Part shown: piece after piece, positions 3,221 through 62,202 of the stretch | How positions within the stretch are numbered: position 1 is the first letter of the stretch | Layout of the letters: each line of letters begins with the position of its first letter | From: a bacterium | GTDB lineage: Bacteria > Patescibacteriota > Minisyncoccia > Phycocordibacterales > UBA9973 | Length of the DNA stretch: 64,000 bases | Assembly: GCA_021831595.1 (NCBI GenBank) | Contig: JAKBMK010000020.1 | Location: 2,801 to 66,800 of the forward strand | Reading direction: 5' to 3' | Program-made: the position numbers and the translations under genes | The notes under the pieces: model-generated | What the model was told of the DNA's origin: nothing | The model's database searches: none | Seen by the model: only the letters and a program-made list of their open reading frames with translations

Positions 3221-4335
3221 AAATTTTAAAAAATAAAAGTATATTTGAAATTATCTTAATAATAACATTTTTTGGATTAGCCATAGTTGGGCTAGTATTT
3301 TCTGTGGTCTTTGTGGCGATGAGATTACATTTAACGGATGTTAAAGGAAGTATTGATGCTAGGAATGAATATTTTAAAGAGATACAAGATACAACAGCCA
3401 AGATTTCTACTATAGACAAAACGGAGAACGAACTAAATATAAGAAGGGTTAATGCGGAAGTTGAGTGCAAAATTATTACCGTTTTGTCTGATTTCCCTAT
3501 AAATGGACAAAAAATCCTCGATACTTATATTAAGACCAAAGATCAGACTCTCGTTCTCAAAATGGTTGATGCTTTGGTGTCAGTCACGGCTTATGATAAT
3601 TCCTTGAAGGACAAAATAGATCGATGTACCTTTATGGCGAAGAATAATTTGTCTAAAAATGATAGTTTGAGCAATCAAGATATATTCAACTGGATATCAT
3701 CTTCTGAATGGATAACCCTAAGAGATGCATTAATAAAAGATAAAGACAATATTTTGGAAGCTAGTCGTGTGTCTGGGGTGCCAGCTAGAACGATAGTCGC
3801 AACCGTTATCTCAGAACAGTTTAGATTCTTTACTGCAAACAGAGAATCATATAAAAAGTTTTTTGAACCTTTGAAAATTTTGGGCAATGGGACAAAATTC
3901 TCTTATGGAGTAGCTGGAGTAAAATTTGAAACTGCTAGAATGATTGAAAACAATTTAAAAGATAAAAATAGTCCATATTATCTCGGTTATGCCTATGAAA
4001 ATGTTTTGGATTATACAGACCAGAATACAGATGCAGTGCTGATGGATAGACTTACCAACAAGGATAATCATTATTACTCATATCTCTATACAGGTCTCTT
4101 TTTGAAGCAAATAATGAATCAATGGAAGAATGCTAGCTATCCTATCGGTGATCGTCCAGAAGTGCTATCTACCTTATTTAATCTAGGTTTTAATAAGTCT
4201 ACGCCAAAAGAAAATCCAGATATTGGAGGGTCTACTATTACTATAAATGGCCGTGATTATACCTTTGGCGGACTTTCTTATGAGTTCTACTATTCTGGAG
4301 AACTTTCCGAAATTTTCCCTTTCGCGGTACAATAG
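3217..4335 (+). CDS. hypothetical membrane-anchored protein (positionally MreC-like, unverified)
   Basis: 372 aa; N-terminal TM helix, coiled-coil segment; ATGA overlap with mreB implies translational coupling. Confidence 0.5.
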   Translation: MKILKNKSIFEIILIITFFGLAIVGLVFSVVFVAMRLHLTDVKGSIDARNEYFKEIQDTTAKISTIDKTENELNIRRVNAEVECKIITVLSDFPINGQKILDTYIKTKDQTLVLKMVDALVSVTAYDNSLKDKIDRCTFMAKNNLSKNDSLSNQDIFNWISSSEWITLRDALIKDKDNILEASRVSGVPARTIVATVISEQFRFFTANRESYKKFFEPLKILGNGTKFSYGVAGVKFETARMIENNLKDKNSPYYLGYAYENVLDYTDQNTDAVLMDRLTNKDNHYYSYLYTGLFLKQIMNQWKNASYPIGDRPEVLSTLFNLGFNKSTPKENPDIGGSTITINGRDYTFGGLSYEFYYSGELSEIFPFAVQ

Positions 4336-34400: not shown

Positions 34401-37400
34401 CTGGTGGTGCTCTTACTCTTGCGGGAGGATTGTGGACAAGTTCTGCTACACAAAAAGCTATTACTTTCAAGACTCAAGGAGTAGCAGACGCAATGTCTAT
34501 TTTGAATAATGGAAATGTCGGTATCGGTACGACGAGTCCACAAACGAAACTTTCTGTTTCTAATGGAGGGAGTCAAAATATTGAGATTGATCCAGGTTTT
34601 ATTCAAAGCTTCAATCGTACTACTCCAGGTTATGCTGCTTTACCATTTTATGGAAGTAATTTTAGTTTTAATGTTGGTAATGTCGGAATCGGAACAACGA
34701 ATCCTACATATCCATTAGAAATTAAATCAGCAGTAGGTGCTGGAGCTTTAGCTTTAGTAGGGAGAGATGCTGATAATGTCTCATCTTTTGAATTTTTAAA
34801 TAGTGGAAAAACTTCTAGCGCTTATATCCAAGGTAATGGTTCATGGATAAGATCCAGAGCAGATGGAGGGTTTCATTTCTCAAAAGGATCTACTCCTATA
34901 GTTACAGGAACTGATTTTACAATAGAAGGTTTGAATGTCGGTATTGGAACAACTTCTCCAAATGCAAAACTTGATGTGGCTGGAATCATCAGATCAAATG
35001 CTTCGAATGTAGGTACTTTAAATCTTGGTTCAGATTCATTCAGTAGTACATACACAACTGCTCAAATAATAGGGTCAACCTCTCCTTCATATACAAGTAC
35101 TGGTAAATTATCTTTTAAAGTTTTAACTTGGGGTGTTAATACTGATTATGGTTTAACAGAACAGATGTATATTGATGTTCCTGGTGCTGATTCAAAAGCT
35201 GCAACTATAGTGATGGCACCATATGGTGGCAATGTGGGAATTGGCACGACAAGTCCTCAGTATTCTTTGCATTCTCCGGGGAGTGCATCATTTGGTTTAG
35301 GATCAGAACTACTTTTGAATAATAGTAGTTTTGAATCGGATACTTCTTCTCCTCCAAGTAGTTGGTCCAATCTGGGGAATACCACAGGTACAGCTGTCGT
35401 AGACGGATCTGCTCCTTCGGGGAATAATGTTGCGGAAGTAGTTGCGACTGGTAGTGGAACTATTGGGTATAATGCTTTTAAAACAGCCTCACCATTAGTA
35501 TTAGGCAAGACTTACAAGATTACTTATTATGCTAAAAGTATTAGTGGTGGAACAACGATAAGTCTAGGTATCCAAGCAACAGTTGATTATCAGTATAACC
35601 AAGCCATTTCTACTTCATGGTCTCAGTATTCAGTAACACACACAGGAACAATTAATCCGATGACTATTGGTTTTTCTTCTGCTAGTGGGGCAGCAACTTT
35701 TAGGGTTGATAATATTTCGGTAAAAGAAGTAAATAATCTTTATGTTGGAACAAATGGAAGTGTAGGTATTGGATCTACATCACCAATAAGTGTTCTTGAA
35801 GTTAAAAGTGCTGCTCCAATTTTGACAATTAATGGAACTGACAACTCACAATTCAAAGGAATTAATTTTGCAACGCTTGGAAGCGTGCAAGCTAGTTTGT
35901 TGTCGAATATTGCAACAGGAGAACTGAAACTTCAATCAGGTACTTCTGGTTTCGGTGGATTTATGACATTTAATTTAGATGGTAGTGAGAGAATGAGAAT
36001 TCAAGCAACAACAGGTAATGTAGGTATTGGAACAACGGCACCAGGAGCGAAGTTTGAAACATCTAGTGTTTCAAGTGGTTTAGTTTGGAATGGAATTTTA
36101 AGAAATGACTATAATGCCAATGCAACAAATTATGGAGTCGGATTGAAATTAAAAGTTAGTAGCGATGGAGTGCCAAATGAAATTAATAAATGGGTAGGTC
36201 TTGCTGCTGTAGCTGGCAGTACATATTCTAATAGGACAGATTTGGCCTTGTATACATCTGCATCATCAGCAACAGACCCAACTGAGAAAATGCGAATTGA
36301 TGGAAACGGTAATGTTGGAATTGGAACACAAACTCCTGGAGCAAAATTAGATGTAATTGGAAATATTTATCTAAGTTCAGCTAATCCTTATGGTGGTTCG
36401 AGTGTTTATAATGTCCAAAAAGAGCAAAATGTTAGCAGCGCAAGTGTGGCTGGAGCGGGATGGTATCGTGTTGCTCAGCTTGGGGATGTACGTGGACAAA
36501 ACACAGTTACTATTTACACCACAGGAGGAAGTTATGCCCCACAAAGTACAACGATAAGATGGTGGCATGATTGGTCAGCTCAAGGTGGATTAAATGTCAT
36601 TTCAGAATTTGGTTCTAGCTTTTGGAGTCAAGCACGAGTGACAAGTGATGGCATAACTAATTCATATTTGGAAGTTTACTTTAATCAAGCTATGGCAGGT
36701 GGTGTCTATCTTTCAATGCAATATGATGGAGGTTTTGCAAAAGGATCACTTTATAGTGGGTCTTTGCCTGTTGGTGGTGATACAGTAAGAATGACTACAA
36801 CAACTGGATTACTGTCTGTTGGGGACAAATTGACTATAAATAATTCTGGCAACGTTGGAATTGGAATAACAAGCCCAAGCCAAAAATTAGATGTAAACGG
36901 TATTCTTAAAATAGAAGGACAGGCTAGTTCGACCTTTAATTCAACCTCGCAAGGAATTTCTTTCTTTGCTGGTAATGATAACTATAAGATTGGTTTTGAT
37001 AGTCAAGCTGGATCAAGGGGTTATATTCGTTACAACGTAGATACGAATGATAGTGTTCACGGACATATTTTTTCAGCTGGTGCATCAGGAAGTCAAACAG
37101 ACTTAATGACAATTCTAGGTAACGGCAACGTCGGGATTGGTACGGCGAATCCAGGGACAAAACTTGATATCCAAGGAGCGATAAATACTTCCCCTGTATC
37201 AATAGCACAATCTGGCGCAGCAAACAATACATTCGGTGATTATATAGGTCTTGATTTCAAGATGTCAAACGAGATGTCGCAGTATACGGGCAATCCTGCA
37301 GCGAGAATCTCAGCGTATCTGGAAGGAGGAAGCAATGGTTACGGATTGGATTTTTGGACGAAGCTCGATGCAGCAAACTTTAGCAAGGCAATGAGGATAA

Positions 37401-39049
37401 ACAGGTATGGCAACGTAGGTATTGGGACAACAAGCCCGGGAGAAAAGTTGCATATATATCAAGCTTCAGGAGAGCCTCATTTAGCATTAGAATCTGGCGA
37501 TTCAAACGCAGGAATATATATTAAAGCAGCAGCTGCAGCGTTTCCTTATATTAGATTTTATCAGGGTGGAGTAGGAAAATTTGAAATGGGAAAAGTTGCT
37601 TCGAATGGAAATTTTTACTTCAACAATACAACAGCATCTGGAGAAACAAATGCAACGATGGTAATTTCATCTGGTGGCAACGTCGGAATTGGAACAACGA
37701 GTCCGGATTATAAACTAACCGTAAATAGTTCAGGGAATACAAGTTCAGCTGCAAGTGCGTTGCATGGTCAATATTATGGACCGATGATTTCTACTGGACA
37801 AACAAGTTCGAGTTATTATGCTTTGAATATTACCAATAATGCATCAAGTCCAGGAACAGGAAATTCAATTTTTTATGTAAGAGCTGATGGTAATATTGGT
37901 ATCGGAACGACAAATCCTAGAGCAAGTTTAGAAATTGCTGGTGGTATTAGGGTGGCTGATGGTGTATACGGCGTTTCAAATAGTGCTGGTAATCAAATAT
38001 TAGCATCGTCGAGTGGCAGTAATTATCTATATAGCAGAACTTCTGGCAACCTTATAATCAGAAATGGTGCGGATTCAGCTGAGTTGTTAAGAATTACAGA
38101 TTCCGGTAACGTTGGGATTGGTACAACCAGCCCAAATCAGAAATTGGAAGTCAGTGGCACGATTAGACAAAGTGGTTGTACTACAGCGGGAACGATATCG
38201 GTCAATGCATCAGGAGATATTATATGTACTCCTTCATCAATCAGTTTCAAGAATACTAGAGAAGATTTAGAAGTAGGCTTGCAGACTTTGATACAACTAA
38301 AGCCAGTATCGTACAAATTCAATGACAATATGGATATGGGCGAGAAGACTCACTTCGGATTCATTTCAGAAGAAGTCGACTATGTTCTCCCTGAGCTTGC
38401 AACTCATGATAAAGACGGCAAGCCTTATGGCCTTGATACCAATGCGATTCTTGCGGTGACAGTAAACGCTGTGAAGGAGCTCAATACCAAAGTCGAAGAA
38501 ATGAATTTGAAGATTTCTGACTTGTCATCACTCGACACTACGAAGGCCACTTCACTCGGAAGTTTGATAAAGACTTTCCTAGCAGATGAATACAACAGAG
38601 TCGAAAAGATATTTGCCAAGACTGTCGTCACCGAAGGCCTCGAGATGAAAGATAGCGCAACAGGCGAGACATATTGCGTAATGGTCACAAATGGGGAAAT
38701 AAACAAAGTGAAAGGGAAGTGTGGCGAGCCTATTGTCGCTCCAGCTTCACAAGCAGCTTCGCCTGTAGTTTCTACTCTTCCTACTCCTAGTTGTACTGAC
38801 GGCATAATGAATCAAGACGAGACGGGGATAGATACGGGTGGTATATGCGATGTCCCAGTACTTGCGGATATGACTGCATACGATAATGCTCTTGCTGCAA
38901 AAGTTGAAGCGGACTATACGACAGATAGTTGGGCTCTCTACAAAGCAGTTCTCGATGCCAACATCGTCACAAATACTAATACTCAAGTCGAAGTCGACAC
39001 CGCCGTTGCCAACATCACCTCCGCCCAGGGAAGTCTAATTCCAAATTAA
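31424..39049 (+). CDS. giant fibre-like surface protein: about 25 GNVGIGTTSP repeats, CBM4_9-like insert, Peptidase_S74-like intramolecular chaperone domain, FIVAR-like C-terminus
   Basis: 2541 aa; this frame is open from 31286, overlapping the upstream ORF by 15 nt. Repeat starts G-N-V-G-I-G-T-T-S-P-x-x-K-L-[DE]-V. CBM at roughly nt 35300-35730 (NSSFE...GKTYKITYYAKS...FRVDNISV). S74-like at roughly 38230-38530 (LQTLIQLKPVSYKFND...FGFISEEVDYVLPELA...GLDTNAILAVTVNAVKELN). FIVAR-like at roughly 38870-39040. Confidence 0.8.
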   Translation: MIIRQNGNVGIGISAPANTLQVGGLVSWGSASSRYGILDYATGKAMLYGTSGNALSLGANGTGDYLYITTAGLVGIGTVSPTQIMHIYGTSIRPQIESTANGGYSSLRFVGKNSAGTARVFEVGLNITADDVWQITDGSSTFVNVNTSGNVGIGTAAPSTKLEVVGTALIGNLANTISTPSVRFSGVGIYHPDTNYYGDYAGLLLNASSAWTGSAKRFLITNALNANKFAIIRSVDSSTDPALGTAGAVSSGTADFVIDASGNIGIGTTSPSHKLTVTGGNLAVENGNMYLASGYPLYFDYGITNDYSIAKSGTVLQLNTAGSFAMMGGNVGIGTTSPSTNLEIYGSSPILKVTQNPGVAGGGTIALTAAGVGSDTNAATLNLYNGSLWSRTDGSGIRFGSADKTSTWGILGSNVGVGTTNPTERLDVVGNAKISSTLLLEGQYVDFYNTNPTFRVVTGPGTFLIGDDDNVSLSSGRFFVKNNGNIGIGTTSPQNKLQIANGGIYLTSDNFDTDGIHQPLAWNPSSSNLQQSIIGSVNSDYADTSSTGGTLGIRIGANGGLYEGVPGYMNAGMQALIYGNGGDGAKGGGYLQFLTKDNTTSYSANGDVRMTINPIGNVGIGTTTPVSLLGLTHGKITVGQGANDKAELQGGTGFGALLRLYEGSGGTETVRLDAGGGGGTSWITSGNVGIGTTSPDNKLSVVAGGAAGGFSQGLSIITGNNSYTTGHGGMLQFQNEDVVTAGIRGVREDSWKSGLSFYTHSSGVGNTFDSTFLERMRIDGNGNVGIGTTGALTKLDVNGVIGKRHTVAGTVASPSVEGALQFVTGDTSTLLDVGMFFVNEFFNNNAAYMAFKTRDADTTIRTAMTIYKNGNVGIGTTSPSQKLQVAGNIALDAELTERFIRIAGSYGGAIRFRGNASAVDDRSLQFGTMDGNNLFTPRMIVDTNSGNVGIGTVTPAKTLEVNGDIMASSSGKIGFRYSGADNNFYSYIEGYPAGGALTLAGGLWTSSATQKAITFKTQGVADAMSILNNGNVGIGTTSPQTKLSVSNGGSQNIEIDPGFIQSFNRTTPGYAALPFYGSNFSFNVGNVGIGTTNPTYPLEIKSAVGAGALALVGRDADNVSSFEFLNSGKTSSAYIQGNGSWIRSRADGGFHFSKGSTPIVTGTDFTIEGLNVGIGTTSPNAKLDVAGIIRSNASNVGTLNLGSDSFSSTYTTAQIIGSTSPSYTSTGKLSFKVLTWGVNTDYGLTEQMYIDVPGADSKAATIVMAPYGGNVGIGTTSPQYSLHSPGSASFGLGSELLLNNSSFESDTSSPPSSWSNLGNTTGTAVVDGSAPSGNNVAEVVATGSGTIGYNAFKTASPLVLGKTYKITYYAKSISGGTTISLGIQATVDYQYNQAISTSWSQYSVTHTGTINPMTIGFSSASGAATFRVDNISVKEVNNLYVGTNGSVGIGSTSPISVLEVKSAAPILTINGTDNSQFKGINFATLGSVQASLLSNIATGELKLQSGTSGFGGFMTFNLDGSERMRIQATTGNVGIGTTAPGAKFETSSVSSGLVWNGILRNDYNANATNYGVGLKLKVSSDGVPNEINKWVGLAAVAGSTYSNRTDLALYTSASSATDPTEKMRIDGNGNVGIGTQTPGAKLDVIGNIYLSSANPYGGSSVYNVQKEQNVSSASVAGAGWYRVAQLGDVRGQNTVTIYTTGGSYAPQSTTIRWWHDWSAQGGLNVISEFGSSFWSQARVTSDGITNSYLEVYFNQAMAGGVYLSMQYDGGFAKGSLYSGSLPVGGDTVRMTTTTGLLSVGDKLTINNSGNVGIGITSPSQKLDVNGILKIEGQASSTFNSTSQGISFFAGNDNYKIGFDSQAGSRGYIRYNVDTNDSVHGHIFSAGASGSQTDLMTILGNGNVGIGTANPGTKLDIQGAINTSPVSIAQSGAANNTFGDYIGLDFKMSNEMSQYTGNPAARISAYLEGGSNGYGLDFWTKLDAANFSKAMRINRYGNVGIGTTSPGEKLHIYQASGEPHLALESGDSNAGIYIKAAAAAFPYIRFYQGGVGKFEMGKVASNGNFYFNNTTASGETNATMVISSGGNVGIGTTSPDYKLTVNSSGNTSSAASALHGQYYGPMISTGQTSSSYYALNITNNASSPGTGNSIFYVRADGNIGIGTTNPRASLEIAGGIRVADGVYGVSNSAGNQILASSSGSNYLYSRTSGNLIIRNGADSAELLRITDSGNVGIGTTSPNQKLEVSGTIRQSGCTTAGTISVNASGDIICTPSSISFKNTREDLEVGLQTLIQLKPVSYKFNDNMDMGEKTHFGFISEEVDYVLPELATHDKDGKPYGLDTNAILAVTVNAVKELNTKVEEMNLKISDLSSLDTTKATSLGSLIKTFLADEYNRVEKIFAKTVVTEGLEMKDSATGETYCVMVTNGEINKVKGKCGEPIVAPASQAASPVVSTLPTPSCTDGIMNQDETGIDTGGICDVPVLADMTAYDNALAAKVEADYTTDSWALYKAVLDANIVTNTNTQVEVDTAVANITSAQGSLIPN

Positions 39050-39128: not shown

Positions 39129-39608
39129 ATGTCTATTGTAAGAGAAATATTAGATGAACTTTGGAATACAGAATACAATTACAAGGGAGTAAGGGTAAAT
39201 ATTTTTGGTATTCCGCGATTTAAAAAATATTCTGATAGTAGTTTACAACGAACGATAAATCGTTTAAAAGAGAAAGGAATAATAGAAAAAGAATTATCTG
39301 GAATTGTGCTTTCTAAATATGGTAAAAAATATTATCAGAAAAAGTTTGATTCTCTAAAACAATTTGAAAGACCCAAGAATCAACCCAAAGAGCGGAAACT
39401 CTTGGTAATGTTTGATGTTCCAACAGAAAAGAAGGGCGAGAGGGAATGGCTCCGCTGGCATTTAAAGAAATTCGATTATATTATGATTCAGCAAAGTGTC
39501 TGGGTTGGCCCATCACCACTACCTAAGGAATTTACTGAGTATTTAAAGAGTATAAAGCTGGATAGATGTATTAAGACTTTCAAACTAGAAAAACCATATT
39601 TTATTTAA
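39129..39608 (+). CDS. PaaX-like transcriptional regulator (wHTH plus PaaX_C-like domain)
   Basis: 159 aa; C-terminal KLLVMFDVPTEKKGEREWLRWHLKKFDYIMIQQSVWVGP matches the PaaX_C pattern (W..D.PE...R..LR..L...GF..L..SVW..P). Confidence 0.55.
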   Translation: MSIVREILDELWNTEYNYKGVRVNIFGIPRFKKYSDSSLQRTINRLKEKGIIEKELSGIVLSKYGKKYYQKKFDSLKQFERPKNQPKERKLLVMFDVPTEKKGEREWLRWHLKKFDYIMIQQSVWVGPSPLPKEFTEYLKSIKLDRCIKTFKLEKPYFI

Positions 39609-39685: not shown

Positions 39686-40207
39686 TTATTTGCACAGTTC
39701 GAAAAATTCTTTTTCGGTGGATTCGTCGATTTTATCAGTGACGATGATGATGAGTTCGGTAGAAAGATTTAAATCTTTTTTGATATTTGTAAAGAGATGC
39801 TCAAAAGGATATACAGATATCCAAACAGAATTTTTGAGGCAAGTGAATCCTGCTTTTTTGAGTAAGTAGCGAAGAGCTTCACGCTCACTCTTTCTTTCTT
39901 CTGGCATATCGAGAAGTATTATTCTCCAAAATCCATCCCAAGTATTACTTACTATGGCATTATCGCACTCAAGCTTGAGACTGTTGGCCTTCTTCTTGCC
40001 TTCTTTTGTAAGTTTGGCGTATTTATTCTGGCCAGAGTCCACACTTTCTATGAGTCCTGCGTCTTTTAGACCCTTTATAGAGCGATTTAGAGCATACTGG
40101 CTATCCTTATCTAGGGCAATCTTGTCTTCTAGTTCAGAGACGGAAACAGCCGGTCTTTCGGACAGGATTTTGATAATTTTCTTTGAAAAATCACGCTTTT
40201 TTAACAT
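39686..40207 (-). CDS. PaaX-like transcriptional regulator (paralog), divergent from dnaK
   Basis: 173 aa; N-terminal wHTH; C-terminal WDGFWRIILLDMPEERKSEREALRYLLKKAGFTCLKNSVWISVYP. Confidence 0.6.
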   Translation of the reverse strand: MLKKRDFSKKIIKILSERPAVSVSELEDKIALDKDSQYALNRSIKGLKDAGLIESVDSGQNKYAKLTKEGKKKANSLKLECDNAIVSNTWDGFWRIILLDMPEERKSEREALRYLLKKAGFTCLKNSVWISVYPFEHLFTNIKKDLNLSTELIIIVTDKIDESTEKEFFELCK

Positions 40208-43584: not shown

Positions 43585-44961
43585 ATGACAAAACGTTCAA
43601 TCGCTTCTCGAAAACTTTGGAAGCTTGGTGTAAATGATTTTAATACTCAATATTTTGATTTCAACAAAGACGGTGATTTAATCGCCAAAGAAGGAAACAA
43701 TGTTTACAATATTCGCTATCTAGCTGAGAAGTTCGGAACTTCCCTTGAGATCCTTTTCCCATTCATTATCGAGGAACGAGTAGAAGACCTTCTTGACCTT
43801 TCGGCCTCTCTTATAAAAAAGCATAAATATCAGGGTAAATTCTATTATCACTATCCTATGAAGAGTAATCAGACCAAAGAGGTTGTTCAAGCTGTGGTAG
43901 GAGAAGGTGCAAATATTGAAACTGCTTCGTATAATGAATTGTACATAGTGAAGAAAATGCTCGAGCAAGAATCATTCAATGAGAAAATGAGAATTCTTTG
44001 TAATGGACCAAAGACGGATAAATATATAAATCTAATAGACGAACTTCAACATAGAGGTCTCAAAGTCATTCCTATCATAGAAGGACCTTCAGAACTTAGT
44101 ACATTCCAAAATTCCAAGTACGATGTTGGTATCAGACTCGATATCCCAGTAAAATCCAAAACTAATTGGAACAAGCAAATAGATAGATTTGGTTTCAGTA
44201 GAAATGAAATTTTGAAAATGTCATCATTTAAAAATTTGAAAGTTCTACATTACCGAATAGGTAAAATAGAAAAGCTCTCTGATTTGGTAGAAACTACAAA
44301 ATATGCTTTGAATGTTTATTTTAAATTAAAAGAGAAGAATCCATCTCTCGATACTCTCGATATTGGAGGAGGCATGCCTATTCCATTTGAAAGAAATAAA
44401 AAATATCCTGCTGATAAAATTCTCGAAAAGCTATTTGAATTATTGAAAAAGGAAGCTGAAAAGAGGGAAATGCCGCATCCAAATTTGATTTGTGAATGGG
44501 GAAGATACATGGTTGCCCCTGCGCAAATTACTATTTTTAAAGTTATAGATACCAAGAAAATATCTCACAAAGGAGTTGATGCAAAGAAATGGTATGTTAT
44601 TGATGGAAGTTTAATGAACGATCTCATTGATACTTGGGCTATAAATCAAAAATGGTTTGTTGCTCCTATAAACAATAAGTTAGACGGGGAATTGAATGAT
44701 GTTTGGATTTCTGGTTCTAGTTGTGATTCTGATGATATCTATACAGGTATAGGAGACTCTGTGACTCTACCAGACTATGATTATAGTCCAAATGAGCCTT
44801 TCTATGTAGTATTCTTTGATACTGGTGCATATCAAGACGCCTTGGCTTCACATCACTGCATGCTTTCTTCTCCTATTAAAATAATTGCAGAAAACGGACA
44901 TATAGTTGTTGCTAGAAAAAGAGAGACTCCAGAAGATGTTGGTAAAGAATTTGGTTGGTAA
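43585..44961 (+). CDS. PLP-dependent decarboxylase, biosynthetic arginine decarboxylase (SpeA)-like, compact
   Basis: YPMKSNQ PLP-lysine motif (compare SpeA FPIKVNQ), LDIGGG, CEWGR, GSSCDSDD (CDSxD). Confidence 0.55.
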   Translation: MTKRSIASRKLWKLGVNDFNTQYFDFNKDGDLIAKEGNNVYNIRYLAEKFGTSLEILFPFIIEERVEDLLDLSASLIKKHKYQGKFYYHYPMKSNQTKEVVQAVVGEGANIETASYNELYIVKKMLEQESFNEKMRILCNGPKTDKYINLIDELQHRGLKVIPIIEGPSELSTFQNSKYDVGIRLDIPVKSKTNWNKQIDRFGFSRNEILKMSSFKNLKVLHYRIGKIEKLSDLVETTKYALNVYFKLKEKNPSLDTLDIGGGMPIPFERNKKYPADKILEKLFELLKKEAEKREMPHPNLICEWGRYMVAPAQITIFKVIDTKKISHKGVDAKKWYVIDGSLMNDLIDTWAINQKWFVAPINNKLDGELNDVWISGSSCDSDDIYTGIGDSVTLPDYDYSPNEPFYVVFFDTGAYQDALASHHCMLSSPIKIIAENGHIVVARKRETPEDVGKEFGW

Positions 44962-45269
44962 ATATTATGATTTGGCTTTTATTGGGCGGATTTATATTAA
45001 CTATAGGAGATATTTTCTTTAAATTCTGGACTAAACACCCACATAATTGGATGTATCTTGTTGGTATCAGTATTTACATTATAGGATTAATGTTTTTAAT
45101 ACAGAGTTTTAAAAATACAAACATTGCGGTGGCTTCTGCTATCTTTGTGATTGCAAATATTGTTACTCTTGCTGTCGTTAGTTGGCTGTTTTTTCATGAA
45201 CCACTTTCATATCTGCAAATATTTGGAATCGTTTTGGCGATAATAGCTATCTTTATATTAGAAATATAA
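44955..45269 (+). CDS. small multidrug-resistance/EamA-like 4-TM transporter
   Basis: 104 aa, four TM helices, SMR-like size and topology. Confidence 0.5.
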   Translation: MVNIMIWLLLGGFILTIGDIFFKFWTKHPHNWMYLVGISIYIIGLMFLIQSFKNTNIAVASAIFVIANIVTLAVVSWLFFHEPLSYLQIFGIVLAIIAIFILEI

Positions 45270-45338
45270 TAAAAGGCTCGACTTGTTAATTTATATTATT
45301 TAAATTATAATACAAACATGTTAAAGAAGGGTAGTTAT

Positions 45339-45377
45339 ATGAATATAGCATGGTGGACAGCTCACATTTGTGGGTAG
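45339..45377 (+). CDS. candidate trp leader peptide MNIAWWTAHICG
   Basis: 12 codons with tandem TGG TGG at 45351-45356; 42 nt upstream of a terminator; precedes trpB. Confidence 0.45.
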   Translation: MNIAWWTAHICG

Positions 45378-45419
45378 TCTTCATTGTATTTATAATTATC
45401 TCTGAGTAATAAAAGACAA

Positions 45420-45440
45420 CCCACATTTGTGGGCTTTTTT
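45420..45440 (+). terminator. attenuator terminator hairpin upstream of trpB
   Basis: cccac-attt-gtggg followed by cttttttatt; the 12-mer cacatttgtggg also occurs at 45363-45374 inside the leader ORF. Confidence 0.5.
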
Positions 45441-45554
45441 ATTGTCAAATTTAAAATCATATGGATAAATTTATTTTTAAACAACATTGTACTGAGTTCT
45501 GGCGCTAGTAAAAACGCTTAGTTTTTACATTACTATTTTAAAAATAAAAATTAT

Positions 45555-46760
45555 ATGAAAACAAAAATTAAATCATTAAAAAATTTACCAGACAAAGATG
45601 GGTATTATGGAAAATTTGGAGGGAGTTTTGTCCCTGATCAACTAATAAAACCATTAAAAGAAATTGAACAAGAATATTTAAAAGCGAAAGATAATGTAGA
45701 ATTCCAGAAAGAATACTTAAATCTCTTGAAAGACTATGTCGGGCGTCCATCTCCACTTTATTTTGCTAAAAATTTAACAGAAAAATTAGGAGGAGCAAAG
45801 ATTTATCTTAAACGAGAAGACTTGAATCATACAGGGGCTCATAAGATAAATCATTGCATTGGTGAAGCTTTACTTGCAAAAAGAATGGGTAAGAAGAAAG
45901 TCTTAGCCGAGACTGGTGCAGGCCAGCATGGTGTTGCACTGGCTACAGCCGCTGCTCTCCTTGGTCTTGAGTGCGAAATACATATGGGTTCAATAGATAT
46001 TGAAAAAGAACGTCCAAATGTAATACGCATGAAATTATTAGGAGCCAAAGTGGTAGAAGTTAATACGGGAGGTAAATGTTTAAAAGACGCTGTTGATAGT
46101 GCCTTTGGAGTATTTATGAAAGAATACAAGACTACTTTCTTTGCAATAGGTTCTGTTGTAGGCCCTCATCCTTATCCAATGATAGTAAGAGATTTTCAAT
46201 CTATCGTTGGTCGAGAAGCAAAAGAACAGATATTAAAAAAAGAAAGAAAACTTCCTGATTATGTAATTGGCTGTGTTGGAGGAGGTTCAAATGCTATGGG
46301 ATTATTCCATGAATTTTTAGATGACAAAGTAAAACTCATTGGAGTTGAACCATCTGGTATAGGATCTAAGATTGGCGAACATGCTGCAACTATTAGTTAT
46401 GGAACAAATGGGGTGATACATGGGATGAAAACTCTAGTATTGCAGAACAATAAGGGCGAACCAAATAGTGTTCACTCTGTTGCCTCTGGGTTAGATTATC
46501 CTGGGGTTGGGCCTATCCATGCCTATGTGAAAGATATTGGCAGAGCAGAATACGTAACTGCTTCTGATGATGAAGCGATAAAAGCTTTCTTGGAATTATC
46601 TAGAGTTGAAGGTATAATTCCAGCACTTGAGAGTGCTCATGCTATGGCTTATGTCATGAAGCTAGCCACGACATTAGATAAAAATAAAATCATAATTGTG
46701 AATCTCTCAGGAAGAGGAGACAAAGATATAGAATATGTATCTAAATTATTAAAAATATAA
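45555..46760 (+). CDS. trpB: tryptophan synthase beta chain (stand-alone)
   Basis: [37 protein letters not shown] (PLP-lysine), [10 protein letters not shown]; no trpA or other trp genes nearby. Confidence 0.88.
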
Positions 46761-46765
46761 ATATA

Positions 46766-46796
46766 AAATGCACTAGGTAAGGCCTAGTGCATTTTA
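46766..46796. terminator. bidirectional terminator between convergent trpB and asd
   Basis: aaatgcactagg-taagg-cctagtgcattt followed by a T-run. Confidence 0.8.
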
Positions 46797-46808
46797 TATA
46801 GTGATTAT

Positions 46809-47897
46809 CTATTTAATGAACCCTTTTTTTACTAGAAGTTCAGCGTTGAGTATTCCTCCACCGGCTGCTCCACGAACTGTGTTATGTGAGAGAGCAACAA
46901 ATTTATAATCAAAAATCTTACAATCACGTAGGCGTCCGATAGTGACGGCCATACCTTTGTCGTTATCACGATCTTTTCTTGGCTGAGGACGATTTTCTTC
47001 TTCTTTGTAGATTATTGGATTAATGGGTGCAAAAGGAAGCTTCAAATCTTGAGGAATAGATTTGAATTCATTCCAAATTTTAATTATTTGTTCTTTAGTA
47101 GGCTTTTTATCTTTGAACAAAATATTTACAGTTGCAAGATGTCCATCGATGACTGGTACTCTAGTACAAGTAGCAGATATACTTATATCTTTACTCTTTA
47201 CAAATTTACCATTCTTTATTTCCCCAAGAATTTTGAGTGGTTCTTCTTCTGTTTTCTCTTCTTCACCACCGATAAATGGTACGACATTGTCTATCATGTC
47301 GAGACTTGGTACTCCTGGATATCCAGCACCTGAAACAGCCTGTAGGGTAGTAATCATTACCTTTTTTACAGGAAAACCCGCCTTATTTAGGGCATATATA
47401 GGGGTTAGATAGCTCTGTAGAGAGCAGTTTGGCTTCACAGCGATAAATCCTTTATTCCATCCATGATTTTTCTTTTGAGAAGCAATAATATCTAAATGGT
47501 TAGCATTTATTTCAGGTATAAGCATTGGAACGTCTTCACTCCATCTATTAGCAGAAGCGTTTGAAACTACAGGAATTCCCATTGCCGCATATTTTTCCTC
47601 AATTTCTCTTACAAGATTTTTATCACCTATTTCGAATGCAGAAAAAACAAAGTCACATTTTTTTGATGCTTTTTCTATATCATCAACATTTTCTACTTTT
47701 ATATTACTTACCTTAGCTGGTATTGGAGTAGGCATCTGCCATCTTCCTTTTACAGCTTCTCCATAAGACACTCCTGCTGAGTTAGCTGAGGCTGCTAAGT
47801 AAACAACATCAAACCAAGGATGCTTTTCAAGAAGTTTTATATAATTTTGACCTACCATACCTGTCGCTCCCAATATTCCTACTTTTAGTTTTTTCAT
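46809..47897 (-). CDS. asd: aspartate-semialdehyde dehydrogenase
   Basis: GILGATGMVGQ Rossmann fold; catalytic Cys in NCSLQ context; archaeal-type Asd length. Confidence 0.85.
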   Translation of the reverse strand: MKKLKVGILGATGMVGQNYIKLLEKHPWFDVVYLAASANSAGVSYGEAVKGRWQMPTPIPAKVSNIKVENVDDIEKASKKCDFVFSAFEIGDKNLVREIEEKYAAMGIPVVSNASANRWSEDVPMLIPEINANHLDIIASQKKNHGWNKGFIAVKPNCSLQSYLTPIYALNKAGFPVKKVMITTLQAVSGAGYPGVPSLDMIDNVVPFIGGEEEKTEEEPLKILGEIKNGKFVKSKDISISATCTRVPVIDGHLATVNILFKDKKPTKEQIIKIWNEFKSIPQDLKLPFAPINPIIYKEEENRPQPRKDRDNDKGMAVTIGRLRDCKIFDYKFVALSHNTVRGAAGGGILNAELLVKKGFIK

Positions 47898-47898
47898 A

Positions 47899-49293
47899 TT
47901 ATTTTTTAATAAATTTTTTATATAAATTGTTTACGACTTTTTCAATATTATCTGTTCTTATGACCGCCTCTATTCTTTTACAGTTTTCAAAATAGAAAGC
48001 ACTTATTTGTAAATCTGTACCAAGTTTTACAAGCAAGCTGTTGAAATCATTTACATCCTTGGCCTCAAAGTTTCCGACAAGGAAAACCATACTAGCTTTT
48101 ATTAATTCAATTTTTTCTACTTTACTTTTTATCTCGTTATAGACTTTTTCTATTTCATCATTTTTTTCTGCAACTATTTGCAGACTGTATCTTGTATTGC
48201 TTACAAGAATCATTTCCACTTTATGTTTTTTGAATATATCGCAAACCAAGAGTAGTAAGTCATTAACTTTTATAACCTCATCTGTGATTAATAATAAGTT
48301 CAAATCTTTCTTTATGCTAACTATTTTTGCACCCTTCTCTTTCTTTTTAATTTCTCCGATTTTTGTAGTGAGCTTAGGATTAGCGATGGAAGCAATCTCT
48401 ATTTCTGTTTTGTGCATTTTCACATACTGTATTGCCTTGTCATGGATAATTTTTCCTGCTTCTTCAGCTTCCAAATATGAGATGAAGGGGATAGTCTTGG
48501 CTGTTTTTACTATCTTAGGATCAGCAGAGAGAACCCCTCCGACATCTTTCCATAAAATAACTCTTTTAGCTTCTAGCGCTGCTCCTACAAAGCAGGCTGT
48601 TGTATCAGTTCCTCCTCGTCCGAGAGTTGTTACTTCACCATCGTTAGTTATTCCTGTGAATCCAGGGATAACAACAACTTCTTCTTTTTCTTTTATTTTG
48701 TTTTTTACATTTCTTGAAGAAACCAAGTAATCGATATTTGCATTTTTGAAATGATCATCGGTTATTATTGGTATTTCTTCGGCAATAAACTCTTTAGCGT
48801 TAAGGTTGTTGGATTTAAAATAATAGGTCATTATTATGGCTGAAAGTTTTTCTCCACAAGAAACAACCTTATCTTCTAGGGCGTTAGTTACAGCACCAAC
48901 CTTTCCTTCTGTCTTTTTATGGTCTATTTTGAGATCATCCTCTAGTTTAGTCATGACATTCTCTAATTGTGTAAAGACTTCATCTTCATACTCTTTAGAA
49001 ATTTGTATATCTTTCACTATTTGTTTGTGTCGATTGAGTAAATTTTGAGCAAATGACTCAATTAATTTTCTATCATAATTCTCCTTAAGACTACTTAAGA
49101 AATTAAGTATCTCATCTGTGACCTTTGGCATAGCAGAAACGACAGCAATACTTTGATTGCCTTTTTTTACCTGTTCCTCGATTCTTTTCTTCATCAATGG
49201 GATAAATTCCTTTGTCAGAATTCCGCCCCCAAACTTGTTCACAATGATTGGTTTAGACATTTCTTTTGGTAAATATAATTTATTAATAAACAA
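47899..49293 (-). CDS. aspartate kinase
   Basis: IVNKFGGGIL amino-acid-kinase N-terminus, GRGGTDTTA, C-terminal ACT-like region. Confidence 0.8.
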   Translation of the reverse strand: MFINKLYLPKEMSKPIIVNKFGGGILTKEFIPLMKKRIEEQVKKGNQSIAVVSAMPKVTDEILNFLSSLKENYDRKLIESFAQNLLNRHKQIVKDIQISKEYEDEVFTQLENVMTKLEDDLKIDHKKTEGKVGAVTNALEDKVVSCGEKLSAIIMTYYFKSNNLNAKEFIAEEIPIITDDHFKNANIDYLVSSRNVKNKIKEKEEVVVIPGFTGITNDGEVTTLGRGGTDTTACFVGAALEAKRVILWKDVGGVLSADPKIVKTAKTIPFISYLEAEEAGKIIHDKAIQYVKMHKTEIEIASIANPKLTTKIGEIKKKEKGAKIVSIKKDLNLLLITDEVIKVNDLLLLVCDIFKKHKVEMILVSNTRYSLQIVAEKNDEIEKVYNEIKSKVEKIELIKASMVFLVGNFEAKDVNDFNSLLVKLGTDLQISAFYFENCKRIEAVIRTDNIEKVVNNLYKKFIKK

Positions 49294-49520
49294 GTTGATT
49301 ATAGTATATATAGTAGATAAATCAAGGACATTTTCATTGACTTATGGGGGTAGCAATAGTAAACTAATATTGTTATTAAAATTGTAATTGCGCTTCGTCA
49401 AAATAGCTTTCTTCAAAATGCACACAATAATTTTCTGCTGAAAATTTTGCTCGTACTCGGGCCGTCGCCCTCCGTAAGTCATTTTTCAGAAACTATTTTA
49501 ACTACGCTATAAATCATATT

Positions 49521-50771
49521 ATGAACAAAATTTTAGTTATTGGTTGCGGAAATGTAGGAAGTGTCGGTTTGCATAAAATGGCACAATTTAAAGATACTTT
49601 TTCAGAGATACACGTAGTAGGTAGAACTCTTTCTAAGTGCGAAGCTGTCCGTCAGTCTGTTTTAAAAAAGACGAAAGGGAAAGTTGATTTAAATATTCAC
49701 ATAGCTGACGTTGGTAATGGAGATACATTCTTAAGACTCCTCAAAGAAATTAAACCTACTTTAGTTGTAAACTGGGGAAGTCCTTACGATAATTTGGTTG
49801 TAATGGATGCATGTCTCGAATATGGAGTCAACTACATTGATACTGCTTGTTATGAGAATCCAGAGAAGTATGGCTTCTCTTATAAACTTCAGCTTGCTAA
49901 AAATGAAGCTTTCAAGAAGAAAGGGTTACTTGCTATTCTTGGTTCAGGCTTTGATCCAGGAGTTTCAAACATTTATTCAGCTTACGCTCGCGATTATATG
50001 TTCGACAAGATAGATACTATCGATATCTTGGATTGTAATGGAGGTTCAAAAGATGCCAAGATTAAATTTGCCCCAAACTTTGACCCAGAGATAAATCTCC
50101 GTGAACTTATACTTCCTATTAAATTCTGGGAGAAGGGTAAATGGCAAGAGAGAATGAAACTCATCGATGAAGATGCACCATTCTTTGAATTTAATTTCCC
50201 TGAGGCTGGTAAATTCACTCCTTATCTTATGTACCACGAAGAACTAGAAACTATCCCTACACACATACCAGGACTCAAGCGTATTCGTTTCTGGATGACA
50301 TTCTCAACTACATACCTCACATACCTCCGCGTACTTTACAATGTCGGACTTACACGTATCGATACGGTGGATTATGATGGCAAGAAGGTTGTACCAGTCA
50401 AATTCTTGAAGGCAATTCTTCCTAAGGGTGAGGACTTCAATAGTGGATACGTTGGCAAGACGAATATTGGAAACATTATCACAGGAACAAAGAGTGGTAA
50501 GAAGAAAGCTGTATATATCTACAACGTTTGCGACCATAAGGCTGCCTTTAAAGAGACAGGAGGCAATGCTATAGGCTACACGACAGCTATTCCAACCGTT
50601 ACTTGTGCCAAACTCGTCCTAGAGGGCAAATGGGGAGGAGTAGGAACGAAAAATACCGAAGACAAGAGTCTTGATTCAAAGATCTTTATCGACGAAATGG
50701 CAAAAGTAGGTCTTACAACAAACATAAAAACTCTCAAAGACATACCTGCTGCACTTAAAAAAAGCTATTAA
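49521..50771 (+). CDS. carboxynorspermidine/carboxyspermidine dehydrogenase (saccharopine dehydrogenase family)
   Basis: ILVIGCGNVG Rossmann fold; CASDH-like length; followed by the CANSDC gene. Confidence 0.7.
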   Translation: MNKILVIGCGNVGSVGLHKMAQFKDTFSEIHVVGRTLSKCEAVRQSVLKKTKGKVDLNIHIADVGNGDTFLRLLKEIKPTLVVNWGSPYDNLVVMDACLEYGVNYIDTACYENPEKYGFSYKLQLAKNEAFKKKGLLAILGSGFDPGVSNIYSAYARDYMFDKIDTIDILDCNGGSKDAKIKFAPNFDPEINLRELILPIKFWEKGKWQERMKLIDEDAPFFEFNFPEAGKFTPYLMYHEELETIPTHIPGLKRIRFWMTFSTTYLTYLRVLYNVGLTRIDTVDYDGKKVVPVKFLKAILPKGEDFNSGYVGKTNIGNIITGTKSGKKKAVYIYNVCDHKAAFKETGGNAIGYTTAIPTVTCAKLVLEGKWGGVGTKNTEDKSLDSKIFIDEMAKVGLTTNIKTLKDIPAALKKSY

Positions 50772-50784
50772 TTAAACATTTCCA

Positions 50785-50808
50785 AACAGTGGCAAAACCA
50801 CTGTTTGG
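50785..50808 (+). promoter_or_regulatory. strong hairpin immediately upstream of the CANSDC ribosome-binding site
   Basis: ccaaacagtgg-caaaa-ccactgtttgg, then GGAGGA and ATG 50817; no T-tract. Confidence 0.4.
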
Positions 50809-50816
50809 AGGATTAT

Positions 50817-52034
50817 ATGTCAAAAAATAATGAAAACATTTTTATAGAACCTTGGATTGATACGGAAGGATGGGATAAACTGGACTTTTCGAAAGTAGAG
50901 ACTCCATCGTATGTAGTCTCCTTAGAGAAGCTCGAGAATAATCTAAAAATTTTGAAAGAGGTAGAAGACAAGACTGGCGCTCATATACTTATGGCTCTCA
51001 AAGGATTTTCGATGTTTTCGACGTTTTCTTTAATCAAAAAATATCTTTCAGGATCTGAAGCAAGCTCTGTAAATGAAGCTCGTCTTGGATATAAAGAATT
51101 CGGAAAAGAAACTCATGTCTTCTCGCCATCATATACAGAAGAAAATCTTAGGGAATATATAAAGTATGCTGATCATTTAGTTTTTAACTCTTTCTCTCAA
51201 TGGAATAAATTTGCCGCCTTCGTTAAAACTACGGCAGGCCGAAGAAAAATATCGTGTGGAATTAGAGTTAACTTAGAACATAGCGAAGTAGAAACTTCTA
51301 TGTACGATCCCAGTAGTGAGAATTCTCACTTTGGGGTGACAATAAAAAACTTTGAAAGAGAAAATATAAAAGGGTTAGAAGGTTTACATTTTCATAATCT
51401 TTGTGAACTTGATGCTGATGCACTAGAAAGAAGTCTCAAAGTTTTTGAAGAGAAATTTGGTGAATTTTTAGGGGGGATGAAATGGGTAAATTTTGGCGGA
51501 GGACATCATATAACCAGGAAAGATTACAATGTGTCTTTGCTTTGCAAAATATTAAATGATTTTAAATCACGATATCCTCATCTCGAAATTTATTTAGAGC
51601 CAGGAGAAGCGATAGCTCTCAATGCTGGTGTTTTAGTTGCAAGCGTAATAGATATATTCAAGAATAATAAAAATATTGCTGTGCTTGATGTGTCTGCCAC
51701 CACTCACATGCCAGATGTTCTAGAAATGCCTTATTTACCAACGATTTTAGGTGCAGAGCCTTCGCACAAAGCTACAGTCGGCGAAGAAAGCCATATATAT
51801 AGATTAGTGGGGCCAAGTTGTCTTACAGGAGATGTGATAGGAGAGTATTCATTCACCAAACCGCTTGAAATAGATCAAAAACTTGTATTTATGAATATGG
51901 CTATATATACGATGGTGAAGAACAATACTTTCAATGGAGTAAATTTGCCAAATATCACAACAGTAGATAAAACTGGGAAAATAAAAATTATTAAAAAGTT
52001 TGGATATAAAGATTTTAAAAATCGATTATCATAA
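50817..52034 (+). CDS. nspC: carboxynorspermidine/carboxyspermidine decarboxylase
   Basis: alanine-racemase-fold decarboxylase; VNFGGGHH, EPGEAIA, GPSCLTGD; one of the few clear GGAGGA Shine-Dalgarno sites in the window. Confidence 0.7.
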   Translation: MSKNNENIFIEPWIDTEGWDKLDFSKVETPSYVVSLEKLENNLKILKEVEDKTGAHILMALKGFSMFSTFSLIKKYLSGSEASSVNEARLGYKEFGKETHVFSPSYTEENLREYIKYADHLVFNSFSQWNKFAAFVKTTAGRRKISCGIRVNLEHSEVETSMYDPSSENSHFGVTIKNFERENIKGLEGLHFHNLCELDADALERSLKVFEEKFGEFLGGMKWVNFGGGHHITRKDYNVSLLCKILNDFKSRYPHLEIYLEPGEAIALNAGVLVASVIDIFKNNKNIAVLDVSATTHMPDVLEMPYLPTILGAEPSHKATVGEESHIYRLVGPSCLTGDVIGEYSFTKPLEIDQKLVFMNMAIYTMVKNNTFNGVNLPNITTVDKTGKIKIIKKFGYKDFKNRLS

Positions 52035-52038
52035 TATT

Positions 52039-53097
52039 ATGAGTAAAGAAGAAAATTTAAAAAAGAGGGAGGAAGTACTAAAAGATTTTGATTCTAATGA
52101 AAATGGATTAACACACCATGGAATATTTGGTTTGCCGTTCAGCACAGAGGAATCGAGTCTTGTTCTTGTCCCTGTACCATGGGAAGCAACTGTAAGCTAT
52201 AAAGGAGGAACAGCGGAAGGCCCAAAGTCTATACTGGATGCATCACAGCAAATTGATCTCTATAATTTTCTATATCCAAACGGATGGAAAGAGGGTATAG
52301 CTATGCAAGATATACCAACGAGTATTTTGTATAACAATAAATACACTAAAGAGAAAGTCTCAAAATATTTAGATAAATATGTAGAAGGAGAAATTGATAA
52401 AAATTTACAAAACGAAATTAATAATGATTGTTTAGAATTAAATAAATATGTAAGAGAAACAACCAGTGAATTTTTGAAAGAAGGTAAAATTGTTGGTATT
52501 GTAGGGGGTGACCATAGTACACCTCTTGGTTATCTGGAAGCTTTAGCTGAAAAATACGACGATTTTGGGGTTCTACATATAGATGCTCATGCTGACTTGA
52601 GGAATGCATATGAAGGAATGACTTACTCTCATGCTTCTATATTTTATAATGCATTAGGAATAAAAAATATTTCAAAACTTGTCCAAGTTGGTATTAGAGA
52701 TTTCTGCGAGCAGGAATATGAATTAGTAAAAAAGGAGAAAAAGAGAATTTCTTTCTTTACAGACTACGAAATAAAAAAATTTATTTTTGAAGGAGGAACA
52801 TTAAAAAAGAAATTTCATGAGATTATAAAATGCTTGCCTAAGAATGTATATATTTCATTTGATATAGACGGCCTGACGCCATCCCTAAGTCCTAACACAG
52901 GTACACCCGTAGCTGGAGGATTTTCTATGGAAGAAATGGTTTTTCTTTTTGAAGAATTATTAGACTCTGGTAAAAAAATTATAGGATTTGATTTGTGTGA
53001 AGTAGCTCCTGGAAAAGAAGAAGAATGGGATGGGAATGTTGGTTCTCGTATGCTCTATAACCTCTCTCTAACTGCTCTAAAAAGTCAAAAAGAGTAA
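52039..53097 (+). CDS. speB: agmatinase (ureohydrolase family)
   Basis: GGDHS, LHIDAHADL, SFDIDGL manganese-binding motifs. Confidence 0.8.
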   Translation: MSKEENLKKREEVLKDFDSNENGLTHHGIFGLPFSTEESSLVLVPVPWEATVSYKGGTAEGPKSILDASQQIDLYNFLYPNGWKEGIAMQDIPTSILYNNKYTKEKVSKYLDKYVEGEIDKNLQNEINNDCLELNKYVRETTSEFLKEGKIVGIVGGDHSTPLGYLEALAEKYDDFGVLHIDAHADLRNAYEGMTYSHASIFYNALGIKNISKLVQVGIRDFCEQEYELVKKEKKRISFFTDYEIKKFIFEGGTLKKKFHEIIKCLPKNVYISFDIDGLTPSLSPNTGTPVAGGFSMEEMVFLFEELLDSGKKIIGFDLCEVAPGKEEEWDGNVGSRMLYNLSLTALKSQKE

Positions 53098-62071: not shown

Positions 62072-62202
62072 ATTTCATATCAATAAAGCACCTAGATACC
62101 TGGGTGCTTTCTTGGTATATATCCAATGTATTGACAATTAAATCTAAAAGTCATACAATACAATTGAATATGTATATTGTCAAATCTTTATAATATCAAG
62201 CC

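Follow-up and report, generated by a model that had tools for sequence, protein, structure and literature searches.

A probable ribosome-mediated tryptophan attenuator and a second conserved upstream reading frame precede an orphan trpB gene in a Nomurabacteria-like bacterium

We analysed a 64 kb stretch of bacterial DNA (the window; GC 35.6%) in which a stand-alone gene for the tryptophan synthase beta chain, trpB, is preceded by a short leader open reading frame (ORF) with tandem tryptophan codons, an intrinsic terminator and a further small ORF. The genome is placed in the Candidate Phyla Radiation (CPR), as Nomurabacteria-like, because the window's DnaK falls in a 90%-identity cluster whose every named member is Candidatus Nomurabacteria and because the nearest trpB loci carry labels of Paceibacterota, Nomurabacteria or Saccharibacteria metagenome-assembled genomes (MAGs). 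The prevailing view of CPR bacteria, or Patescibacteria, is that they synthesize hardly any amino acids and depend on partner cells; to our knowledge, their gene regulation is very poorly understood. Judged by sequence comparison and modelled folding, the 5' region of the monocistronic trpB transcript is very likely a classical ribosome-mediated, tryptophan-responsive transcription attenuator. The features of the locus, with the basis of each, are:

45283-45311, forward strand: sigma-70-type promoter, TTGTTA (-35), 17 nt spacer, TATAAT (-10, 45306-45311); consensus scan, 10/12
45318-45377, forward strand: leader ORF 1 (trpL-like), 19 codons, MLKKGSYMNIAWWTAHICG and stop; sequence and homologous peptides in relatives
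45351-45356, forward strand: tandem Trp codons W13 and W14 (TGG TGG), the proposed sensing site; conservation and footprint folds
45329-45401, forward strand: predicted hairpin 1:2, anti-antiterminator and likely pause hairpin, core 45350-45365 with 45370-45384; minimum free energy (MFE) fold and covariation
45369-45425, forward strand: predicted antiterminator 2:3, UGUGGGU.GUCUU (45369-45381) with AAGAC.ACCCACA (45413-45425); -16.9 kcal/mol and covariation
45419-45440, forward strand: intrinsic terminator T1 (helix 3:4), CCCAC-AUUU-GUGGG, C and U6 (45435-45440); consensus scan and covariation
45461-45508, forward strand: second upstream ORF (ORF2), MDKFIFKQHCTEFWR and stop, with an invariant Trp codon at 45500-45502; conservation upstream of trpB
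45499-45528, forward strand: predicted hairpin H2 and U-run, GGCG (45501-45504, Trp-Arg codons) with CGCU (45515-45518), then UUUUU (45522-45526); folds and shuffles
45555-46760, forward strand: trpB, tryptophan synthase beta chain, 401 aa, stand-alone; TIGR00263 and Pfam PALP

Firstly, we examined the promoter and the leader ORF. A first-pass annotation of this DNA had described a 12-codon leader with tandem TGG codons, running from ATG 45339 to TAG 45375-45377 (MNIAWWTAHICG); its coordinates and its TGG pair are as given there, and its length is what needs revising. This frame is the 3' part of a 19-codon ORF, and the true leader probably starts at the in-frame ATG 45318, since relatives keep the 19-codon form. 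The apparent Shine-Dalgarno motif AAGAAGGG encodes Lys-Lys-Gly of the leader and is probably just codons, because this genome seldom uses such motifs (3 of the 34 long ORFs of the window have one). The -10 TATAAT ends exactly 6 nt ahead of ATG 45318, and a TTGCAA-17-TATAAT-6 nt-ATG/GTG geometry recurs in 23 of 27 unique related loci; because this spacing is kept, the leader is probably translated from a leaderless mRNA, the transcription start being placed by its distance from the -10. TATAAT directly before ATG is also seen at several other genes of the window (e.g. 15510, 24482, 62203); together with the scarcity of Shine-Dalgarno motifs, this suggests that initiation which is leaderless or independent of such motifs is widespread in this genome. 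The annotation had further counted tandem Trp codons in an AT-rich genome among its evidence. Composition alone proves nothing here, the hexamer TGGTGG not being rare (44 copies in the window); what makes the pair significant is its conservation, in 28 of 31 aligned leaders.

Secondly, we folded the leader RNA. The region 45320-45450 reaches -38.8 kcal/mol, against -23.8 ± 3.3 for shuffled sequences (z = -4.57, reached by 0 of 200). The earlier report of a hairpin followed by T6, 42 nt past the leader stop codon (45420-45440), is borne out by direct reading and by the consensus scan: the arms are CCCAC 45420-45424 and GTGGG 45429-45433, with a core of -7.9 kcal/mol, or -12.8 when the A/U extension is included. 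So is the 12-mer CACATTTGTGGG said to be shared by leader ORF and terminator, which has exactly two copies in the 64 kb (45363-45374 and 45422-45433), with 0 expected from shuffles. The pairing postulated between the leader GTGGG and the terminator CCCAC stands as the antiterminator 2:3, but the three-part design in which it was cast does not: the leader's copy of the 12-mer forms a hairpin of its own (CUCAC/GUGGG, within 1:2), and the system therefore has four segments. The core of helix 1:2 (-11.7 kcal/mol) carries the Trp codons in its 5' arm, and below it leader codons 5-10 pair with the spacer TTGTATTTATAATTAT (45384-45399) in an extension that covers most of the ORF. The same spacer also holds a -10-like TATAAT.

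Helices 1:2, 2:3 and 3:4 are mutually exclusive. Folding with and without a masked leader, a check proposed in the annotation, yielded such an exclusive antiterminator/terminator pair. We simulated a ribosome by masking positions -15 to +14 around the A site, a footprint size assumed from E. coli, and refolding the remainder. With the footprint on either Trp codon of the window, the MFE structure is the antiterminator 2:3 without the terminator; with the footprint on the stop codon, the terminator forms. The switch is the same in 12 of 12 close orthologous loci.

Thirdly, we compared the locus with its relatives. A conserved WW leader before orthologous trpB genes had been named as a check, and it was found, every helix showing compensatory changes: the leader recurs with its helices and its promoter geometry before orthologous stand-alone trpB genes at about 30 loci, mostly of CPR bacteria and in a few gammaproteobacterial MAGs. 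In close CPR loci a 19-residue ORF, M.KK.NY.NTAWWTTHISG followed by a stop codon, always lies 5' of trpB, and conservation extends to the WW pair of the leader, the place of its stop codon and the geometry of the promoter. The cassette accompanies trpB whichever gene lies 5' of it, and in a rough neighbour-joining tree the leader-bearing TrpBs form one clade, with actinobacterial TrpBs as its sister group. As a negative control, more distant trpB loci were searched, and a small WW ORF was found upstream in only 3 of 54.

A covariance model built from 12 sequences recovered and aligned 31 leaders. Across helices 1:2 and 3:4 together, 92.5% of the alignment cells pair (slid controls, 36-53%) and 19 cells are double changes, a number that 0 of 500 shuffles reach. 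The terminator helix 3:4 by itself is paired in 98.1% of cells, with double changes in four of its five pairs. The 2:3 core pairs in 98.4% of cells (slid controls, 34-58%), including 7 double-change cells (again reached by 0 of 500 shuffles), and the lower extension of 1:2 in 82.9% as against 37-53% in slid controls. Much of the near-invariance of the spacer is thus explained by its pairing with leader codons 5-10. One example of compensation is seen at L014, L093, L094 and L100, where A has become G in segments 1 and 3 and U has become C in segments 2 and 4. Measured against all local 24-nt windows, segment 2 is among the best 1% for complementarity to the 5' arm of the terminator at 15 of 20 loci. 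In distant relatives (L026, L028, L031-L033, L106) the segment sequences are quite different, and hairpins 1:2 and 3:4 are still cross-complementary; segments 2 and 4 match each other there, and likewise at L093 and L100, despite the changed sequence. Within the window the model gave one further, weak match (62075-62178), which was set aside as only the terminator of the preceding gene.

These data point to the following mechanism. Transcription would begin at or 1 nt before ATG 45318, and the 19-codon leader would be read from the leaderless mRNA. When charged tRNA-Trp is scarce, the ribosome would stall on UGG UGG at 45351-45356 and cover segment 1; segment 2 (45369-45381) is then predicted by the folds to pair with segment 3 (45413-45425), so that no terminator forms and the polymerase would read on. 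When tryptophan is plentiful, the ribosome would reach UAG 45375 and cover segment 2, in which case 3:4 and U6 are predicted to form and transcription would stop at about 45440. Without any translation the long 1:2 hairpin would form, and the terminator too. Read-through transcripts would cross ORF2 and its hairpin before reaching trpB, probably a second checkpoint.

At the level of sequence and modelled folding, the locus thus has every hallmark of a trpL-type attenuator: a leader ORF with clustered codons, a terminator, the alternative helices 2:3 and 1:2, and a footprint geometry that switches between them. The annotation's view that this is a real ribosome-mediated trp attenuator is supported by the folding switch and by the conservation of the leader. 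The classical type of the attenuator is well supported. Its context of a CPR host, a locally orphan trpB and a probably leaderless mRNA is unusual, and it is not captured by an Rfam family. At gathering score no family matched in the window or in 12 related loci. The top match, to the Trp_leader family RF00513, aligned end to end with 22.2 bits (E = 0.065), below the gathering score of 41.

Several points weigh against this reading. The free transcript ending at 45441 folds best as 1:4 with 2:3 and not as 1:2 with 3:4, and the model therefore needs a co-transcriptional order of folding, as in E. coli. For several distant relatives, the terminator persists in the equilibrium fold when a stalled ribosome is included, and the antiterminator is predicted there only as long as segment 4 has yet to be made. 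The core of the terminator is just 5 bp long. At L011 (~3756; same sequence as L099) the leader starts with ATA instead of ATG, the remainder of the attenuator being intact. Attenuation of the textbook kind depends on translation being tightly coupled to transcription, and the model presupposes both such coupling and leaderless initiation in CPR bacteria. ORF2 and H2 could be the dominant control point. Finally, the whole case is built on sequence and thermodynamic models.

The enterobacterial trpL leader is a close counterpart. It shares with the window a short ORF with tandem Trp codons near its end, alternative 1:2, 2:3 and 3:4 helices with an intrinsic terminator, and the placement of the Trp codons in segment 1 and of the stop codon at segment 2. 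The window differs in that a lone trpB, not trpE, lies downstream, in its probably leaderless mRNA with no Shine-Dalgarno motif, in its AT-rich 5-bp terminator, in the long lower extension of 1:2 over most of the ORF, in its second conserved upstream ORF and in its CPR host. Classical attenuators have also been predicted in Actinobacteria, at Corynebacterium diphtheriae trpB1EDGC and trpB2A and at Streptomyces trp operons and trpS (PMC1262725). These resemble the window in their double or triple UGG leaders, terminator/antiterminator pairs and trpB-first operons, and in complementary triples conserved across the interacting segments; they differ in that the operons include further pathway enzymes, are GC-rich, have no second upstream ORF described, and do not occur in genomes without the rest of the pathway (PMC1262725). 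Mycobacterial attenuators with leaderless polycysteine short ORFs likewise have a leaderless ORF at the 5' end rich in the regulatory codon, by which downstream genes respond to the amino acid concerned; that system senses cysteine in a different phylum, whereas the window has a canonical terminator/antiterminator (bioRxiv 10.1101/834739). The indole-salvage operon trpRBA of Chlamydia trachomatis offers an ecological parallel, with a reduced, host-dependent genome that keeps only the end of the pathway, under tryptophan control. Unlike the window, it still has trpA; the TrpL annotated there is a long, unvalidated peptide with no tandem Trp codons, and attenuation is attributed to YtgR, while the attenuator of the window is canonical (PMC7755916).

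The 115 nt between terminator T1 and trpB hold ORF2, which the first-pass annotation had not mentioned. Its consensus is M-x-[KH]-[FY]-I-F-K-x-H-C-[TN]-E-[FT]-W-R. It stands before trpB in 17 loci retrieved through TrpB alone, including a Legionella MAG, with shorter variants in two further loci of gammaproteobacterial type, and a metagenome scan with an ORF2 DNA pattern returned 32 loci, 30 of them with trpB 90-125 nt downstream. Sequence comparison shows the ORF2 peptide to be kept all the way from Nomurabacteria to Legionella-like Gammaproteobacteria, always just 5' of the orphan trpB clade. Entropy at codon positions 1, 2 and 3 is 0.66, 0.58 and 1.08, so that third positions vary most, and 29% of codon differences are synonymous versus 14% expected for random single-base changes; codon statistics of the 32-locus set were not used, because the search pattern biases them. 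Past Arg15, sequences and stop-codon positions diverge. At L010 (3905-4063) and L024 (1914-2069) ORF2 lacks a stop codon and continues into trpB in the same frame, which is compatible with chance in so few loci. A literature search returned no match to the ORF2 peptide motif.

Over the Trp-Arg codons of ORF2 a hairpin recurs. Of 38 unique homologues, 30 have GGCN base-paired in their MFE fold. The wobble position of the Arg codon covaries with its H2 partner, and most homologues have a U-run after the hairpin, about one in three being without it. When the ORF2 hairpin was aligned with MAFFT, RNAalifold gave no consensus structure, because the 3' arms are out of register; it was replaced by per-sequence folds with a shuffle test, in which the mean z was -1.42 and 10 of 31 sequences lay at or below 5%. 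In the window H2 is weak: it has -2.5 kcal/mol, versus -5.9 for the alternative hairpin GUAAAAAC/GUUUUUAC (45508-45528). A ribosome stalled at W14 would occlude H2. Two other roles for ORF2 were considered and rejected. Translational unmasking of the erm type fails in that a mask at W14 leaves the accessibility of the trpB start unchanged (0.61 vs 0.60), and pairing of ORF2 codons 2-9 with the trpB start region gave a weak signal (mean z = -0.73) that is absent in distant loci.

The leader peptides TnaC, SpeFL and B. subtilis rtpA are likewise encoded by short ORFs just upstream of the regulated gene, are conserved at the peptide level and have a critical residue near the C terminus; with rtpA, transcriptional and leader-peptide sensors of tRNA-Trp charging work in tandem. 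ORF2 has no sequence similarity to them, and as it precedes a biosynthetic gene, any regulation by it would have to follow another logic than that of TnaC. ORF2 is probably a second checkpoint. That it encodes an undescribed regulatory nascent peptide acting in the ribosome and forms, together with H2, a mechanistically different checkpoint is a tentative proposal, and ORF2 is a candidate new regulatory peptide. It might sense free tryptophan or indole, or it might make a single Trp codon a sensitive sensor; if so, trpB would be expressed only when tryptophan is short and a second condition is met.

Control could even lie mainly with this second module, an ORF2 peptide in the ribosomal tunnel gating trpB together with H2 and the WW attenuator being secondary. 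We regard this as improbable. It would account for the conservation of the ORF2 peptide across CPR and gammaproteobacterial loci, where the N-terminal half of leader 1 is not conserved, for the variable third positions, for the strict tie to trpB (30 of 32 matches) and for the free drift after Arg15 and of the stop position, as well as for the recurrent hairpin whose wobble base changes with its partner. But it leaves the strong evidence for the WW attenuator in place, H2 is weak in the window and without its U-run in about a third of homologues, neither a ligand nor arrest by ORF2 can be inferred from sequence, and in related loci of the trpR type this trpB is regulated although ORF2 is absent.

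These trpR-type loci bear on a further, very unlikely reading, in which the two CACAUUUGUGGG hairpins bind a tryptophan-activated protein (TRAP-, TrpR- or PyrR-like) that selects terminator or antiterminator in place of the ribosome. The hairpins are near-identical and ~59 nt apart, so that they could bind a dimer, and relatives do employ TrpR at this gene: Nomurabacteria L017, L020 (trpR at 3472-3762), L021 and L030 have trpR (PF01371), and the WW attenuator that precedes this trpB there is a different one. In 45280-45560 of the window, however, a TRAP array (9-11 (G/U)AG triplets with 2-3 nt spacing) is absent, there being no run of even three, as is any GTACTAGT-type TrpR operator at up to 2 mismatches; a tblastn search with TrpR found none in the window, a T-box covariance model had no match at E up to 10 in 44900-45700, and no other Rfam family was found. 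Moreover, hairpin sequences vary between lineages while cross-complementarity is kept, and protein binding leaves the conserved ORF, the Trp codons and the placement of the stop unexplained. We therefore retain the ribosome-mediated attenuator; that these relatives combine trpR with a WW attenuator of their own at this trpB is an independent sign that the gene is kept under tryptophan control.

The gene order at L017, L020, L021 and L030 is a TrpRS-like gene (sometimes), trpR, GTACTAGT-type palindromes, a WW leader with terminator, and trpB, with no ORF2, an arrangement that resembles Chlamydia trpR-trpB. TTGACA promoters that overlap a TrpR-operator-like GTACTAGTAC are found at L025 (upstream of 309) and at L029 (upstream of 4001), where they are combined with a single-Trp leader (NWQTTHLSG, then a stop codon) and with ORF2. 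An operator-like site and trpR are both present among the relatives L017, L020, L021, L025 and L029. L029 is labelled a Legionella MAG, and the cassette therefore crosses phyla. The presence of the same cassette in CPR and gammaproteobacterial MAGs suggests horizontal transfer of trpB and its control region as one unit.

The weakest alternative, that the hairpin and T6 merely terminate the upstream polyamine/SMR operon while the WW ORF is a chance frame, draws on the lack of any other obvious terminator in the consensus scan between the SMR stop codon (45269) and trpB, on the commonness of short ORFs and T-runs in a 36% GC genome and on the many TGGTGG copies of the window, but is highly implausible given a promoter between the SMR gene and the leader, the travelling of leader, helices and terminator with trpB in loci with unrelated upstream genes, the conserved frame, WW codons and stop position, the covariation of three helices and the rarity of WW ORFs before other trpB genes.

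The enzyme itself is a genuine TrpB of the TrpB1 type, with 573.4 bits against the TIGR00263 equivalog cut-off of 392.45; it scores well under the cut-off of the TrpB2-like model TIGR01415. The earlier statement that trpB stands alone, with neither trpA nor other trp genes nearby, holds. E. coli TrpA, a probe validated against PF00290 (350 bits), found no match in the 64 kb or in any of the 87 loci searched, no trpA adjoins any of 80 related trpB genes, and none of the ORFs 3' of trpB in 8 loci is TrpA; they encode a SpoU methylase, AsnRS/AspRS-like and TrpRS/TyrRS-like synthetases, a LacI-type regulator and others. Since the probe was negative and the downstream ORFs are unrelated to TrpA, the whole TrpB clade is stand-alone as far as local context goes. 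A survey of groundwater Patescibacteria found trpA and trpB in 15-18% of some MAGs (PMC8672522). A paper on a 'standalone TrpB' (PMC11917138) was set aside, the enzyme there having a TrpA partner. At L026 (3434-4411), a gene for a class I aminoacyl-tRNA synthetase of Trp/Tyr type follows trpB on the same strand.

From the gene content here we infer that this Nomurabacteria-like bacterium makes tryptophan, from scavenged indole and serine, only when tryptophan is short. The attenuator indicates that the lone TrpB is really used for tryptophan synthesis, the indole source presumably being environmental or host-derived, by analogy with genital Chlamydia. A literature search turned up no earlier description of attenuation by leader peptides in CPR bacteria, and a conserved attenuator on a probably leaderless mRNA, in a genome poor in Shine-Dalgarno motifs, would be a concrete case of transcription-translation coupling in this group.

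The trpB unit ends at a hairpin shared with the convergent asd gene:

46761-46799, no strand assigned: 17-bp hairpin between convergent trpB and asd, likely a bidirectional terminator and the end of the trpB unit; consensus scan
46809-47897, reverse strand: asd

The neighbours of trpB are DnaK, DnaJ, polyamine-synthesis genes, asd and aspartokinase, with no trp genes among them. The polyamine-synthesis neighbourhood encloses trpB (43585-44961 and 46809-53097) and includes an arginine-decarboxylase-like gene, carboxynorspermidine synthase and decarboxylase, and agmatinase; asd and aspartokinase also lie there, and no neighbour is functionally tied to tryptophan. Further upstream, two adjoining convergent genes encode small proteins with PaaX_M/Cas2-like domains (39129-39608, forward strand; 39686-40207, reverse strand), beside a 2541-aa ORF (31424-39049) with a weak Peptidase_S74 match.

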